From Bacteroidia bacterium (GTDB taxonomy: Bacteria; Bacteroidota; Bacteroidia; Flavobacteriales_D; Parvicellaceae), in assembly GCA_046569885.1 (NCBI GenBank), contig JBKHVV010000001.1:1-56847 (forward strand): DNA of 56,847 nucleotides. Direction: 5' to 3'. Shown here piece after piece: positions 28,089-50,702 of this stretch. The notes beneath the pieces were generated by a model. It was not told the origin of the DNA, made no database searches, and saw only the letters and a program-made list of their open reading frames with translations. Position numbers and translations under genes: made by a program. Numbering within the stretch: position 1 is the first letter of the stretch; the number at the start of each line of letters is the position of its first letter.

Positions 28089-28595
28089 TCACTCCTTAGA
28101 ATACGATTTTATCACAAAATCCGCTTCGTGTTTTTTGTCTTTGTGGTGGTGTTGTTCAGAAACCATTTTCCATTGTGAGAAATCAATCTTTGGGAAAAAA
28201 GCATCGCCATCGTATGCTTTATCAATGTGCGTTAAGTACAATTTGGTAGCTAAATTTTTGCGCAAGGTTTCTGCATAAATTTGCGCACCACCAATAATGA
28301 ATACTTCTTCTTGCTGCGCTTTTTTAGCTTGCTCTAGTGCTTCTTCAATAGAGTTTACAACAATACAATTAGGCGCTTTAAAATCGCTTTGGCGTGTAAC
28401 AATCACATTGGTTCTATTAGGCAATGGGCGGTATTTTTCGGGAATAGAATCGTAGTTTTTTCTGCCCATTATCACCCAATGGTTTTGCGTAGTGGCTTTA
28501 AAAAATGCCATGTCCTTAGGGAAATGCCACATCAAATCGTTGTCTTTTCCGATGACGTTGTTTTTTGAAATAGCAGCTATAATAGAAATGTTCAT
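28089..28595 (-). CDS. folA: dihydrofolate reductase
   Basis: 168 aa. Motifs IAAISKNNVIGKDNDLMWHFPKDMAFFK and IIGGAQIY. Confidence 0.9.
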   Translation of the reverse strand: MNISIIAAISKNNVIGKDNDLMWHFPKDMAFFKATTQNHWVIMGRKNYDSIPEKYRPLPNRTNVIVTRQSDFKAPNCIVVNSIEEALEQAKKAQQEEVFIIGGAQIYAETLRKNLATKLYLTHIDKAYDGDAFFPKIDFSQWKMVSEQHHHKDKKHEADFVIKSYSKE

Positions 28596-32578: not shown

Positions 32579-33133
32579 TTGAAAATAACTGGAATCATAT
32601 TAGCTGGTGGTAAAAGCTCAAGAATGGGTACCGACAAAGGGCTTGCTCAGTATAACAACATACCCATGATTGCTCATGTAATAAAAGCATTAAAGCCCAT
32701 AACCGATGATGTAATTATTGTTACTAGTAATGACCAGTACAATACATTTGGCTACCCGGTAATTGCAGATTTAATAAAGGATAGCGGTCCTTTGGCAGGA
32801 CTTTACACAGGCTTGTTTCACTCGAAAAACGAACTAAATGTGTGCCTAAGTTGTGATATACCGCTAATTTCAACCGAAATAATTTTACGCTTAACAGAAA
32901 CGATTAAAAAAAAAGATGCTGCCATAGCATTACACAGTAATAAAATACATCCGTTAATTGGTGTTTACAAGAAACACAATTATGCCAACGCAAAAAAACA
33001 AATTGAACAAGGCAACCTTCGATTGAAAGATTTTTTAAACATCATTAACACACATTTGGAAGATGTTTCCGACTTTAATAAATCAATGTTTAACAACATC
33101 AACACCTTAAAAGAATTAAACGAAACAATATGA
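32579..33133 (+). CDS. mobA: molybdenum cofactor guanylyltransferase
   Basis: 184 aa. Motif ILAGGKSSRMGTDKG. TTG start directly after the preceding stop. Confidence 0.8.
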   Translation: MKITGIILAGGKSSRMGTDKGLAQYNNIPMIAHVIKALKPITDDVIIVTSNDQYNTFGYPVIADLIKDSGPLAGLYTGLFHSKNELNVCLSCDIPLISTEIILRLTETIKKKDAAIALHSNKIHPLIGVYKKHNYANAKKQIEQGNLRLKDFLNIINTHLEDVSDFNKSMFNNINTLKELNETI

Positions 33134-34921: not shown

Positions 34922-35833
34922 ATGGTAGACATTACAGCAAAATCAAATACACTAAGAATTGCAACCGCACAAGCCATTGTAAAAGTTAGCAAGCAAGAAA
35001 CCATTGATGCTATAAAAAATAACACCGTTCCGAAAGGCAATGTATTTGCTATGAGCAAAGCAGTTGGCTTGTTGGGCGTTAAACACACACCACTTATTTT
35101 AGCCGATTGCCACCCAATTCCTATTGAATATACAGGCGTTGACTACGAAATAAATGGCTTAGAAATTACTATCAAAGTTACCATCAAAACAATTTACAAA
35201 ACAGGTGTTGAAGTAGAAGCCATGCATGGCGCAAGTGTAGTGGCATTAAACATGTACGATATGCTAAAACCTATAGACAAAGGCATAGAGATACATCAAA
35301 TAAAACTTCTTGAAAAATCGGGAGGTAAATCAGATTTTAGCGATAAGTTTCGTACTGACTTAAAAGCCGCTGTTGTTGTTTGTTCAGATACTATTTCAAA
35401 AGGTCAAAAAGAAGATAAAGCAGGTAAAGCCATTATTAAAAAACTTGAAGCATCTAAAGTAAGTGTGATTGAATATATTGTCATTCCTGATGAAGTTAAA
35501 GATATACAAAATGCTGTAATAAAGCACTCCGAACAAGAAACAGACTTGCTTATTTTTACAGGTGGCACGGGCTTATCTAAAAGAGATGTTACGCCCGAAG
35601 CCATCATCCCTTTGTTAGACAGAGAAATTCCCGGCATAGCCGAAACGGCTCGAAACTATGGGCAAAATCGCACACCATACTCCATGCTTTCAAGAAGCGT
35701 AGCGGGAGTTAAAAATAAAACGTTGGTGTTGGCGCTGCCCGGCTCTACCAAAGGAGCGCAAGAATCTATGGATGCTTTGTTTCCTTTTTTATTGCATATT
35801 TTTAGAATTTTTAAAGGCGCGCGTCACGACTGA
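34922..35833 (+). CDS. moaC: bifunctional MoaC / MoaB(Mog-like) protein
   Basis: 303 aa. The N-terminal half is MoaC (MVDITAK...EVEAMHGASVVALNMYDM). The C-terminal half is MoaB/Mog (GGTGLSKRDVTPEA). Confidence 0.85.
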   Translation: MVDITAKSNTLRIATAQAIVKVSKQETIDAIKNNTVPKGNVFAMSKAVGLLGVKHTPLILADCHPIPIEYTGVDYEINGLEITIKVTIKTIYKTGVEVEAMHGASVVALNMYDMLKPIDKGIEIHQIKLLEKSGGKSDFSDKFRTDLKAAVVVCSDTISKGQKEDKAGKAIIKKLEASKVSVIEYIVIPDEVKDIQNAVIKHSEQETDLLIFTGGTGLSKRDVTPEAIIPLLDREIPGIAETARNYGQNRTPYSMLSRSVAGVKNKTLVLALPGSTKGAQESMDALFPFLLHIFRIFKGARHD

Positions 35834-42339: not shown

Positions 42340-43327
42340 GTTTTTAGTCATCGGTTTGGTTGTTTTTTCTTCATGCAAAAAAGAAGATAAAAACACCTCT
42401 GAAACAATAAACGTAGAGTTAACGCCTTATGAAGTTACTTATCCTGATTATTTCCCTGTGATGACCATTCCAGAAGATAATCCGCTTACCGCAGAAGGAA
42501 TAAACCTTGGCAGAAAACTTTATTACGACCCTATTCTTTCAAGCACAGGGTACTCTTGTTCATCTTGTCATAACAATTCTGAGTCGTTTTCTAGTTATTC
42601 AGCCAATTCATTACCTCATGTAAACCTTGCGTGGAACACCTACTTTTTGTGGAAAGGAAAAATTTCAGGAGCGCTTGAAGACATTATGATGTTTGAAGTT
42701 GAAGAATTTTTTCAAACAGATATCAGCAAATTAAATCAATCAGAAGACTACCAAAAAGAGTTTAAGAAGGTTTACAACGTGGATGTTATTTCATCAAAAG
42801 AAGTAGCGTATGCCTTAGCACAATTTTTCAGAACATTAACGTCAAGCAACTCAAAGTTCGACCAATACTTAAAAAAAGAACTAGCACTCACACCTTCTGA
42901 GATGAATGGATTTCAATTATTTTTTACAGAAAAAGGAGATTGCTTTCATTGTCATTCGCTGGGACTTTTTACAGACAATTCCTTTCATAACATTGGGCTA
43001 GACAGCGTATTTAACGGCATGAACTGGGGAAGATACGATGTAAGCGGAAATAAGTCGGACATCGGATTATACAAAACACCTACCTTAAGAAACGTTGAGC
43101 TAACACCACCTTACATGCATGACGGACGTTTTGAAACACTGGAAGAAGTAGTAGAACACTATAACTCGGGTGTTTTACCAAGCGCAACTCTCGACCCGAT
43201 AATGACAAAAGCAGGAAAAGAAAACGGCTTGATGCTTTCACCCACAGAGAAAAAAGACTTGGTGGCTTTTCTTAAAACCTTAACCGACCAAACGTTTATT
43301 AACAATCCTCAGCTTTCGAAACCATAG
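42311..43327 (+). CDS. mbnH: dihaem cytochrome c peroxidase / MauG family (MbnH-like)
   Basis: 338 aa with a lipobox VVFSSC. Two CxxCH motifs (CSSCH, CFHCH), plus TPTLRNV and PYMHDG. Confidence 0.8.
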   Translation: MPFHSSKINKFLVIGLVVFSSCKKEDKNTSETINVELTPYEVTYPDYFPVMTIPEDNPLTAEGINLGRKLYYDPILSSTGYSCSSCHNNSESFSSYSANSLPHVNLAWNTYFLWKGKISGALEDIMMFEVEEFFQTDISKLNQSEDYQKEFKKVYNVDVISSKEVAYALAQFFRTLTSSNSKFDQYLKKELALTPSEMNGFQLFFTEKGDCFHCHSLGLFTDNSFHNIGLDSVFNGMNWGRYDVSGNKSDIGLYKTPTLRNVELTPPYMHDGRFETLEEVVEHYNSGVLPSATLDPIMTKAGKENGLMLSPTEKKDLVAFLKTLTDQTFINNPQLSKP

Positions 43328-43385
43328 AAATGAAGTTGTGATTACCGCTTAGCAACTGGCGAAACAGAGGTGTTGATTTATAAAT

Positions 43386-43414
43386 AAAAAATCCCGCGAT
43401 AAAGCGGGATTTTT
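43386..43414. terminator. bidirectional rho-independent terminator
   Basis: AAAAA-ATCCCGC (43391-43397) / GCGGGAT (43404-43410)-TTTT, between convergent mbnH and the YceI ORF. Confidence 0.8.
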
Positions 43415-43434
43415 ACTAAAATATATTTCTCAAT

Positions 43435-43893
43435 TTATTTCTTCAACTTCAAATCAACGGTAAGTTTTACATCGTTACCAACTCCACCGTAAGTAGGCAT
43501 TCCGTAAGCCGTTCTGTCAAAATTTATAGTGGCTTTGATAAAGTAGATGCCTTCTTCTTCGTTTTTTACAATCTCAAAAGGAACGATAAGTTCTTTTGTG
43601 GAAGCCATCAGCGAAAAATCACCAACAAAAGCATAGGTGTTGCCTTCTTGTTTTACTTCTTTAATGGTATAAGAAGCCGTTGGATATTTCTCTACATCAA
43701 AAAACTCATTGCTTCTTAAAACCTTATCTCTCGCGGCAGCACCTGTGTAGATAGACGCCACATCAATGGTAACTGTTCCTGTTGACGTAGAATCAAACGT
43801 AAAGTTTCCTTCAAACGTTTTAAACCTACCAATGGCATTGGCAGCACCTTCTGCAATTTCAAACTTGAGTGTAGATTCCTCCGAACTTGCGAT
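43435..43893 (-). CDS. YceI-like lipocalin domain ORF with no start codon or signal peptide, in frame behind the hppA stop
   Basis: The track ORF 43435-43761 (GTG start) holds only the C-terminal ~3/4 of a YceI domain (SIYTGAAARDKVLRSNEFFDVEKYP...). The 44 upstream codons (43762-43893) are open, lack ATG/GTG/TTG, and encode the missing N-terminal strands (STLKFEIAEGAANAIGRFKTFEGNFTFD). Confidence 0.65.
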   Translation of the reverse strand: MASSEESTLKFEIAEGAANAIGRFKTFEGNFTFDSTSTGTVTIDVASIYTGAAARDKVLRSNEFFDVEKYPTASYTIKEVKQEGNTYAFVGDFSLMASTKELIVPFEIVKNEEEGIYFIKATINFDRTAYGMPTYGGVGNDVKLTVDLKLKK

Positions 43894-46146
43894 TCAGTTG
43901 CCTTGAAGCTCGCTAAGCTCTGCTGCGCTTAGGATAACTTCTTTTTTAACCTCAACTTGAGTAGCTTCTTCTTTGTTTTCAGATGTTGTATGACCACCTA
44001 AAATGGGCGCAATTACCAATCCAACCAAACACGTTAATTTGATTAAGATGTTCATTGACGGACCAGACGTATCTTTAAATGGGTCTCCAACGGTATCTCC
44101 AGTTACAGCAGCTTTGTGTGCATCCGAACCTTTGTAGGTCATTTCACCATTAATCATTACACCTGCTTCAAATGATTTTTTAGCATTGTCCCATGCACCA
44201 CCGGCATTGTTTTGGAAAATAGCCCAAAGAACACCCGATACTGCAACACCTGCCATGTATGCACCCAATGCCTCTGCACCCATTACAAAACCAACAATAA
44301 TTGGCGAAATAATAGTGATAGCACCTGGCAACATCATTTCTCTTAACGCAGCTTTCGTAGAAATTTCTACACACTTACCGTATTCTGGTTTTCCTGTGCC
44401 TTCTAATATGCCTGGTATTTCACGGAACTGGCGTCTTACTTCATTAACCATGTCCATAGCAGCTTTACCAACCGATTGCATGGCTAAAGCAGAGAAAATT
44501 ACAGGAATCATACCCCCGATAAACAAGGCAGCCAATACATCTGCTTTGAAAATGTTGATACCATCAATGCCTGTAAACGTAACGTAAGCAGCAAATAGCG
44601 CTAAAGCAGTTAAAGCAGCAGAAGCAATGGCAAACCCTTTACCTACGGCAGCTGTAGTGTTACCTACAGAGTCTAACACGTCTGTGCGTTGACGTACTTC
44701 CTTTGGTAGTTCGCTCATTTCGGCAATACCACCTGCGTTATCGGCAATTGGTCCAAATGCATCAATAGCTAATTGCATAGCCGTAGTTGCCATCATAGCA
44801 GAAGCAGCAATAGCCACACCATAAAAGCCAGCCAACTCATAAGAACCCCAAATGGCTACCGCAAATAATAATACCGATGAAAAGGTTGATTTCATACCTG
44901 TTGCCAAACCAGCAATAATGTTGGTAGCAGCACCAGTAGAAGAGTTTTGTACAATGTTTAATACAGGTTTTTTACCTAACGCTGTATAGTATTCTGTAAA
45001 CGCAGAAATTAAATAGCCCACGCCTAAACCTACCAAGGTAGCATAGAACACGTGGCGGCTTGGAATTTCTTTTACGCCTTCACCAAAGAATTTCATGCTG
45101 ATGGTTTCTGGCAACATCATATCAATTAAGAACCATCCTGCAAAAGCAGAAATAAGAATAGACGTGATGTTACCCAAGTTTAATGCTCTTTGAACTTCTC
45201 CTTCTTTAGCTTCGTTGTTTTTAATCTTTACTAAAAACGTACCGATGATAGATGCTACAATACCTACACCCGCAATTACCAATGGTAATAAGATAGGTCC
45301 CATACCATCAAACTTATCAGTAAATTCAGCCCCACCGTTGGCTTCTACCATGTCTTTAATAATGTAGTTACCCAATACCATAGATGCTAATACTGTAGCC
45401 ACATACGAACCAAATAAATCGGCTCCCATACCCGCTACGTCACCTACGTTATCACCTACGTTATCAGCAATAGTTGCAGGGTTACGTGGGTCATCTTCTG
45501 GAATACCCGCTTCTACTTTACCAACTAAGTCGGCACCAACGTCAGCAGCTTTGGTATAAATACCACCACCTACACGGGCAAACAAAGCAATAGACTCAGC
45601 TCCTAATGAAAAACCAGCCAATGCTTCTAACACTACCGTCATGTTTTGGTAGAAATCGTAATCGCCTCTTGGCAAAATATTGATAAACGTTAAAAAGAAA
45701 ATGCTCAACCCTAATACGGCTAAACCAGCCACACCCAAGCCCATTACGGTACCACCTGAAAACGATACTTTTAATGCTTGTGGCAAACTTGTTTTAGCCG
45801 CTTGTGTAGTTCGCACGTTGGCTTTGGTAGCAATGCGCATACCAATGTTTCCCGCTAAAGCAGAGAACACCGCACCAAATACAAACGCCACCACTATCAT
45901 CCAATGGGTAGTTTCTACATACATAGAAATAGCATACAAGGCAATAGCTGCTATTACTACGAAAATGGCTAAGATTCTGTACTCGGCTTTTAAAAATGCC
46001 ATGGCACCTTCTTGAATGTTTTTGGCAATGCCTTGCATTTTCTCATCACCTGCATCTTGCTTGCTTACCCAAAGGGCTTTTACCGCCATAAATGCCAAAC
46101 CCACTAAGGCCAACACTATAGGTAAAAATTTGATCATGTCTTCCAT
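43894..46146 (-). CDS. hppA: membrane-integral pyrophosphate-energised cation pump (K+-dependent-type signature)
   Basis: 750 aa. Motifs [25 protein letters not shown] (Ala at the K+-dependence position) and [14 protein letters not shown]. Confidence 0.95.
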
Positions 46147-50150: not shown

Positions 50151-50702
50151 ATGACAGACGAAAATTATATAAAGCAAATTCTAAATGGGAACACTAATGC
50201 ATTTAAGCACTTGGTGGATAAATACAAAGACCTTGTGTTTTCTGTGGTGTACAATGTATTGCAACAACAAGAAGATGCAGAAGAAGTAACGCAAGATAGT
50301 TTTTTAAAGGCATACCAAAATTTACATACCTACAGAGCCGAAAGTAAATTTTCTACATGGATTTATAGAATTGCCTATAATAATGCGGTGTCAAAATCGC
50401 GGTTGAAGCAAAAAAATAATCAGCCACTGAATGAAAAACTATCTGTTGCAGATTATTCTACCGAAAATAACATAGCCAATGCAAGCATTACAGAAGTTGT
50501 TGAGCATGGTTTAAAACTTCTTCCGGAACAAGACGCAGCCATTATTAGTTTATACTATTTAGATGAATTGCCTATTAAAGAAATTGCAACTGTTGTGTCT
50601 TTATCAGAAAGTAACGTAAAAGTAAAATTGTTTAGAGCACGAAAAGAATTATACAACTTATTAGAAAACGAATACAAAAACGAACTCCATGACCTCATTT
50701 GA
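50151..50702 (+). CDS. ECF (sigma-70 group 4) RNA polymerase sigma factor
   Basis: 183 aa. Region 2 (FSTWIYRIAYNNA) and region 4 HTH (LDELPIKEIATVVSLSESNVKVKLFRARKEL). Confidence 0.85.
   Translation: MTDENYIKQILNGNTNAFKHLVDKYKDLVFSVVYNVLQQQEDAEEVTQDSFLKAYQNLHTYRAESKFSTWIYRIAYNNAVSKSRLKQKNNQPLNEKLSVADYSTENNIANASITEVVEHGLKLLPEQDAAIISLYYLDELPIKEIATVVSLSESNVKVKLFRARKELYNLLENEYKNELHDLI

Follow-up and report, generated by a model that had tools for sequence, protein, structure and literature searches.

How a complete protein domain comes to be made, when its codons stand directly behind the stop codon of another gene, in the same frame and with no start codon of their own, is the question raised by the hppA locus of a Bacteroidia bacterium (GTDB family Parvicellaceae; assembly GCA_046569885.1). 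The stretch of DNA analysed, here called the window, comprises 56,847 nucleotides (nt) of contig JBKHVV010000001.1, positions 1 to 56,847 of the forward strand. On its minus strand hppA codes for a membrane-integral pyrophosphatase of 750 amino acids (aa) and ends in TGA, and behind this TGA the frame runs on through a domain of the YceI family (Table 1). The answer that seems likely to us, from comparison of the locus with its relatives, is a context-dependent readthrough of the UGA by which one message would yield mostly the 750-aa pump and, as a minor isoform, a 903-aa pump-YceI protein.

Table 1. Features of the hppA-YceI locus and ordinary TGA stops, in positions of the window
Feature	Coordinates	Strand	Basis
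hppA, membrane-integral pyrophosphatase, 750 aa, TGA included	43894..46146	minus	PF03030 match
Hydrophilic linker tail after transmembrane helix 16	43897..43998	minus	translation and alignment
UGA codon, putatively recoded	43894..43896	minus	TGA in 11/11 loci; W column of six sense-codon fusions
+4 adenine (UGA-A context)	43893..43893	minus	invariant in 11/11 loci; preceding codon AAC here
Putative readthrough extension, a complete YceI (polyisoprenoid-binding lipocalin-like) domain, 152 codons	43438..43893	minus	PF04264, AlphaFold2, Foldseek
Start-less first 44 codons of the extension	43762..43893	minus	four beta strands, purifying selection
ATT, start in the public NCBI annotation (132-aa product P0389)	43831..43833	minus	P0389 begins MGRFKTFEGN
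GTG, first canonical start called by ORF finders (108-aa product)	43759..43761	minus	conserved Val/Leu of the barrel
Intrinsic terminator 3' of the YceI TAA	43387..43414	minus	11-bp stem and T-run
Ordinary TGA stops in the window	28089-28091, 33131-33133, 35831-35833, 50700-50702

The domain behind the stop

HppA itself has a full-length match to PF03030 (Pfam profile positions 1-645 of 645, E 2.5e-265) that takes in the catalytic and gate motifs before and in transmembrane helix 16 (TM16), the catalytic motif being conserved, and has 96% identity to the HppA of one relative (locus L001) and 85% to that of another (L048). Its last codons read QGN and are followed by the TGA at 43896..43894 of the minus strand. 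A hydrophilic tail behind the last helix, which a first-pass annotation of this DNA had pointed out, is present in the translation, and its end, ELQG-x, is a motif in common with HppA-YceI fusions that are not interrupted by a stop.

Past the TGA the frame that runs on from hppA is closed after 152 codons by a TAA at 43437..43435. The 152 residues match PF04264 over profile positions 5-149 of 150 (E 8e-29), and the match sets in at residue 4 after the stop and not after residue 45, a late beginning that the first-pass annotation had named as telling against its proposal; the open reading frame (ORF) that begins at GTG 43761 reaches only profile positions 51-149. AlphaFold2 models the 152 aa with a pLDDT of 89 and a pTM of 0.82; the model places four strands of the barrel within residues 8-44 (8-15, 18-24, 27-32 and 38-44), and is superposed by Foldseek over its whole length on structures of the YceI family (BcnA 5ixh, E. 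coli YceI 1y0g, TT1927b 1wub, HP1286 3hpe and also 7bwl) with TM scores of 0.81-0.90. By profile match and by its predicted eight-stranded lipocalin-like barrel the extension is a member of the YceI-like domain family. The first 44 codons past the TGA contain no ATG, GTG or TTG. A complete but start-less domain in frame directly behind a stop is not a matter of chance, and it recurs in ten further independent assemblies. The earlier description of such a domain in the hppA frame is borne out in coordinates, frame and profile match. No terminator-like site was found at the TGA or inside the extension, the only convincing one lying 3' of the YceI stop, and so hppA and the extension would be carried on one transcript.

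The closest free-standing YceI relatives come from Crocinitomicaceae, are 222 aa long and have an N-terminal hydrophobic anchor, and signal-less YceI proteins also exist (for example P0005). An unrelated polytopic membrane protein of 669 aa (P0210) ends in a YceI domain introduced by the residues VSGNWTLD, and membrane proteins may repeatedly have been given a tethered YceI at their periplasmic end.

Conservation of the TGA and the ancestral tryptophan

Protein searches with the domain found its close relatives only as truncated "YceI" ORFs, and the contigs of these that could be obtained were examined. With the window they provide eleven loci (L001-L004, L025, L048, L026, L024, L027 and L049 being the other ten), which are independent assemblies from different samples and from three data sources. 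All eleven recovered loci of this YceI subclade have hppA, a TGA at the homologous codon and the YceI frame behind it, and in each the junction follows the pattern [A/C]AC-TGA-A. Identity of the YceI part to that of the window is 79-92% for L001-L004 and L025, 54% for L048, 42% for L026 and 35-37% for L024, L027 and L049, and HppA identity to the window is 85-96% in the loci compared. TAA, though one G-to-A change away and the commonest stop in the window, is found at none of the eleven junctions. At residues that are themselves invariant, only 2 of 20 four-fold degenerate sites are unchanged in nucleotide across the nine of the eleven loci with complete and frameshift-free sequence, and so synonymous sites are close to saturation; the chance of three unconstrained bases all staying unchanged over such a divergence is roughly 0.001. 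Retention of the TGA thus appears to be selected and not fortuitous.

The alignment of orthologous loci that the first-pass annotation had proposed finds the TGA conserved throughout the subclade and a sense codon in fusions of other Flavobacteriales, and at this place no relative shows an independent yceI gene with its own ATG and signal peptide. Two of the explanations put forward at that time can be set aside. A base-call or assembly error is excluded by the identical TGA in all eleven independently assembled loci, and a recent nonsense mutation by the 35-92% range of YceI identity, the near-saturated synonymous sites and the purifying selection downstream.

Two of the eleven contigs end inside the YceI part. 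In eight of the nine loci with a whole YceI part the frame is open for about 150 codons and constrained, the exception being L004, in which two frame-breaking indels fall in the YceI part (L004:1940-2115) and give rise to the chimeric ORF P0004. Immediately before the UGA all eleven loci have AAC (Asn) or CAC (His), while in the uninterrupted fusions this codon specifies Glu, Val, Ile or Pro, and the P-site codon or its tRNA may be part of a readthrough context. The tRNAs that read AAC and CAC normally carry queuosine. One locus, L026, is a mosaic (L026:1-648) in which the hppA tail up to the TGA is 100% identical in aa and 87% in nt to that of L001 (L001:3740-4330) and the YceI part only 42% identical, which suggests that recombination at the junction or close to it replaced the YceI module and spared the TGA.

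Selection on the extension was followed through ratios of non-synonymous to synonymous change, as rates (dN/dS) or as proportions (pN/pS). Within the close clade dN/dS in the first 44 codons is 0.10-0.43 at dS of 0.3-0.65, similar to the 0.06-0.24 of codons 45-110, and the deep pairs give pN/pS of 0.41-0.67. For the first 20 codons alone, which lie upstream of the ATT of Table 1, pN/pS is 0.12-0.56, and between the window and L025 residues 5-20 differ by five synonymous and no non-synonymous changes. These values suggest that translation in the hppA frame goes on past the TGA and takes in even the codons that precede every candidate start. No conserved start, canonical or near-cognate, was found in the 44 codons across the aligned relatives. 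The ATT is ATT in seven of nine aligned loci and TAC in L027 and L049, and is as a start probably an annotation workaround. The GTG is absent at the aligned position in L003, L025, L048, L026, L027 and L049, and initiation there would delete PF04264 positions 1-50. Metagenome pipelines (JGI) call YceI products of 108-128 aa from the GTG, and a 46-aa antisense ORF is called across the start-less gap both in the window (43766-43906, plus strand) and in L001 (3856-3996, minus strand).

Elsewhere in the window TGA is an ordinary stop, as the first-pass annotation had held in arguing against code reassignment. The 44 long ORFs tile the window with no split genes and end in TAA (31), TAG (8) or TGA (5), and the four TGA-ended genes other than hppA (DHFR, a MobA-like transferase, MoaC/MoaB and an extracytoplasmic function (ECF) sigma factor) each stop at the end of their Pfam profile, by which a change of genetic code (table 4 or 25) is excluded for the window. 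Behind these four stops the next in-frame stop follows within 0-20 codons, as against 152 codons at hppA, and the +4 base is T at three of the four, as against A at hppA. Backup stops and a mostly T +4 base at the ordinary TGAs fit with a UGA that is somewhat leaky in this genome and is buffered at other sites.

What stood at the position of the TGA before can be read from fusions found with a chimeric query (HppA C-terminus, X, YceI). Many single polypeptides combining PF03030 and PF04264 were recovered; they are frequent in Flavobacteriales and Bacteroidia, and several are annotated at NCBI as pyrophosphatases of these groups. Their junctions read ELQG-[E/V/I/P]-W-[I/V/L]-LD-x-x-HS-x-VDFSIRH, and in a MAFFT alignment the TGA of four clade representatives shares its column with the Trp of six uninterrupted fusions. 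Free-standing Crocinitomicaceae YceI proteins have L-x-G-x-Y at the aligned point, and so, with Trp in the fusions and Tyr in the free-standing relatives, the domain begins with an aromatic residue. The uninterrupted fusions resemble the window gene in architecture, in the ELQG-x end of the linker and in where YceI starts, and in part also in neighbourhood, since dNK and GH3 genes lie downstream in L005, L006, L027 and L049. They differ in having TGG (Trp) where the window clade has TGA, and in an N-terminal YceI strand of the canonical form HS-x-V-x-F-x-x-x-H where the window clade has ...KF...GRFK.F. One base change turns TGG into TGA, and a tRNA-Trp that misreads the UGA would restore the ancestral Trp.

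The proposed readthrough and its rivals

In the model that we propose hppA and YceI would have been one ancestral fusion gene, in which the TGG codon for Trp, the first conserved residue of YceI, became TGA in the ancestor of the clade and was kept since. Most ribosomes would stop at the UGA and release the 750-aa pyrophosphatase, while a minority would decode it by a near-cognate tRNA, most likely tRNA-Trp(CCA), aided by the invariant UGA-A, and would read 152 more codons to yield a 903-aa HppA-W-YceI. The YceI barrel, following TM16, would then lie on the periplasmic face with no need of a signal peptide, and the UGA would see to it that, in the dimeric pump, subunits with the domain are few in proportion to plain ones; to hold them sub-stoichiometric is plausibly what the leaky stop is for. 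A passage of PMC5289835, citing Engelberg-Kulka 1981 and Beznoskova 2016, describes UGA-A as a context that tRNA-Trp misreads with particular ease in E. coli and yeast. With the alignment of the Trp position and the +4 A in all loci, the product of about 903 aa that the first-pass annotation had considered among its explanations fits well. That the leaky stop is itself selected is suggested because TGA retention, the +4 A and the constraint downstream occur together. We infer the occurrence of readthrough, the amino acid inserted, the efficiency and the role of a tethered YceI from comparison of sequences.

The topology that the model needs is one that the first-pass annotation had assumed in placing the HppA C-terminus in the periplasm. 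Membrane pyrophosphatases have 16 transmembrane helices and a cytoplasmic hydrolytic centre (PMC5150537), and in the window HppA the catalytic motif sits immediately before TM16, so that the chain after TM16 should be periplasmic. Both the OmpA-like domains at the C-terminus of relatives and the anchored state of free-standing YceI proteins fit this arrangement, and a YceI domain that hangs behind TM16 would be in the periplasm anyway, which would account for the lack of a signal peptide.

Several points weigh against readthrough as proposed. No stimulatory RNA structure was found downstream of the UGA. An Rfam scan of 43300-44300 at a permissive E-value gave nothing at the UGA, its weak matches all falling on the terminator hairpin; RNAalifold found no conserved structure downstream of the UGA (covariation term 0.01); 70-nt folds from the UGA had z-scores of -1.3 to +1.1 against shuffled sequence, with predicted structures that differ between loci; and no hairpin resembling a selenocysteine insertion sequence (SECIS) was found 3' of the UGA by Rfam, RNAalifold or single-sequence folds. 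Stimulatory downstream structures accompany many known readthrough cases and not all, and so are not obligatory, and the readthrough signal at hppA, if there is one, would have to lie in the short context. The efficiency may be no higher than background, which in the model bacteria that have been studied is at most a few percent, and the data leave unexplained why a leaky stop would be preferred by selection over a sense codon. A tRNA search found no tRNA genes in the window or in the loci of the ten relatives. The indels of L004 may stem from faulty sequencing, or the domain may really be decaying in that lineage. The evidence comes from eleven loci, most of them on short metagenome contigs, and two large contig scans yielded no further relatives: a scan of the contigs of GTDB species representatives with the clade YceI alignment gave only distant YceI of at most 46% identity and no such locus, and a metagenome contig scan gave, among the matches listed, nothing closer than partial matches of about 30-58%. 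Among the best 150 matches listed from a HMMER search with the 152-aa domain against 1.84 billion representatives there was no long sense-codon fusion of the subclade, which is represented there only by the truncated ORFs P0002, P0004, P0126, P0157 and P0137; full-length fusions could be hidden there inside HppA clusters formed at 50% identity.

Of the other ways to account for the locus, one is that a separate YceI polypeptide is made from the same mRNA, by re-initiation or internal initiation at ATT 43833..43831 or GTG 43761, and is a free, signal-less and cytoplasmic YceI-like protein. This agrees with the 132-aa product from the ATT in the NCBI annotation and the 108-128-aa products of the metagenome pipelines, with the existence of signal-less proteins such as P0005 and with retention of the ATT in seven of nine loci, but the ATT is TAC in L027 and L049, six loci lack the GTG, and purifying selection acts, as noted above, on the stretch of 20 codons before the ATT. 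A start at the ATT would lose most of the first two beta strands and one at the GTG all four; the nearest free-standing relatives are membrane-anchored or exported; and re-initiation should be indifferent to the identity of the stop, yet this is TGA and never TAA in all eleven loci. We hold separate initiation to be quite improbable. Still less credit is due to the idea that a nonsense mutation broke the fusion and left YceI behind as a dead remnant, or that the TGA is an assembly error. Gene callers do handle the locus as a truncated gene, the L004 YceI part is frameshifted, and in-frame stops are common in bacteria as short-lived polymorphisms (PMC7918605), but the cases in that survey have dS of about 0.003-0.004, against 0.3 to more than 1 here. 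The loci are not near-clonal, a frame of about 150 codons is open in eight of nine of them despite near-saturated synonymous divergence, dN/dS is well below 1 throughout, and eleven independent assemblies agree on the TGA; decay or error is hardly credible here.

A dedicated and efficient decoding of UGA, by a suppressor tRNA with UCA anticodon, by a tRNA-Trp with a 4-bp anticodon stem, as selenocysteine or through a lineage-wide change of code, would be in part a variant of the readthrough that we propose, and would make the deep conservation easier to understand. A tRNA-Trp(CCA) with 4-bp anticodon stems occurs in diverse bacteria and raises UGA readthrough in E. coli (PMC13092985). Set against this, TGA ends the four other window genes at their profile ends and no genes are split, which excludes a code change for the window; selenocysteine is disfavoured by the lack of a SECIS-like hairpin, Rfam match or conserved structure downstream and by an aligned homologous residue that is Trp or Tyr and not Cys; and a general suppressor would read the other TGA stops too, an objection blunted by their backup stops within 0-20 codons. 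Overall we think such dedicated decoding improbable. A bolder form of the readthrough proposal, that the UGA has long been kept under selection with a dual meaning, stop or Trp, and sets the rate at which a periplasmic, lipid-binding YceI is added to the ion pump, appears to us rather unlikely. Decoding may then owe efficiency or dependence on conditions to some factor peculiar to the lineage, for instance a 4-bp-stem tRNA-Trp or a weakened release factor 2 (RF2), and a core gene of a bacterium would have a recoding switch under regulation in place of a passive leak.

Relation to known systems and to other HppA extensions

In viruses and eukaryotes there is good documentation of programmed stop-codon readthrough. 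Chromosomal genes of bacteria offer, to our knowledge, almost no support for it apart from transient nonsense polymorphisms, convincing conserved examples being scarce. The translation signals of Bacteroidota differ from those of E. coli. As in the coat/A1 proteins of Q-beta, the eukaryotic MDH1x and LDHBx and the fungal peroxisomal isoforms, a leaky UGA read by a near-cognate tRNA would give a minor longer product with an extra module, and the window locus has in common with the known cases that stop codon and downstream frame are conserved. That a short context can suffice without RNA structure, as proposed here, is known for example for UGA-CUA (PMC4207609). Unlike Q-beta and MDH1x, the window locus is a bacterial chromosomal housekeeping gene in Bacteroidota, its extension is a whole folded domain of 152 aa that would be put across the membrane by a polytopic pump, and its stop would replace the ancestral Trp of an older fusion and not extend a protein into a 3' untranslated region.

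Belinky et al. 2021, who interpreted them as readthrough events, reported that in-frame stops are common in bacterial genes and have flanks with dN/dS below 1, and that TGA is the leakiest stop, with Trp inserted (PMC7918605). Their cases resemble that of hppA in being an in-frame nonsense codon of a bacterial gene with such flanks. They are very recent, with dN/dS of 0.66-0.82 at the low dS given above, and many were judged short-lived, whereas the window TGA persists in every member of the subclade across near-saturated synonymous divergence, sits at a domain boundary and has a conserved +4 base and a known ancestral Trp. With stop-to-Trp reassignment (code 4, or the 4-bp-stem tRNA-Trp of PMC13092985) the locus has in common a UGA where Trp is expected and its proposed reading by tRNA-Trp, but a single site is concerned and TGA is an ordinary stop in other genes.

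The HppA proteins of Flavobacteriia carry many different C-terminal extensions past TM16 (seen among proteins P0008-P0125). YceI fusions on them are of two types, one with ELQGxW... and one with ..W[TV]G[RK]KVGG.H.., OmpA-like domains stand at the C-terminus of P0053 and P0114, and a tail of about 80 aa (EVKKEVIVKADNDVWTMTV...), to which no function has been assigned, is widespread. An uninterrupted fusion of type B on a 4.29-Mb contig is split into ORFs of 572 aa and 322 aa by a 1-nt frameshift inside hppA (L005:4930-5001); as a second recoding site this split was rejected, and it is most likely an error of long-read assembly. No paper that links membrane pyrophosphatases with YceI or describes HppA-YceI fusions was found, and a review mentions only OmpA-like C-terminal domains on membrane pyrophosphatases (PMC11210485).

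Four lines meet at this stop: the ancestral Trp of the sister fusions, the invariant UGA-A, the constrained domain downstream and the lack of an alternative start. Annotation pipelines mishandle such loci, calling "YceI" proteins of 108-132 aa from a GTG or an ATT and an antisense filler ORF across the gap, and the locus draws attention to an unstudied family, the membrane pyrophosphatases fused to YceI. If the proposed readthrough is true, it would provide a short readthrough context for Bacteroidota, and would mean that a leaky stop can serve bacteria to fix the proportions in which a membrane protein is made as two isoforms.

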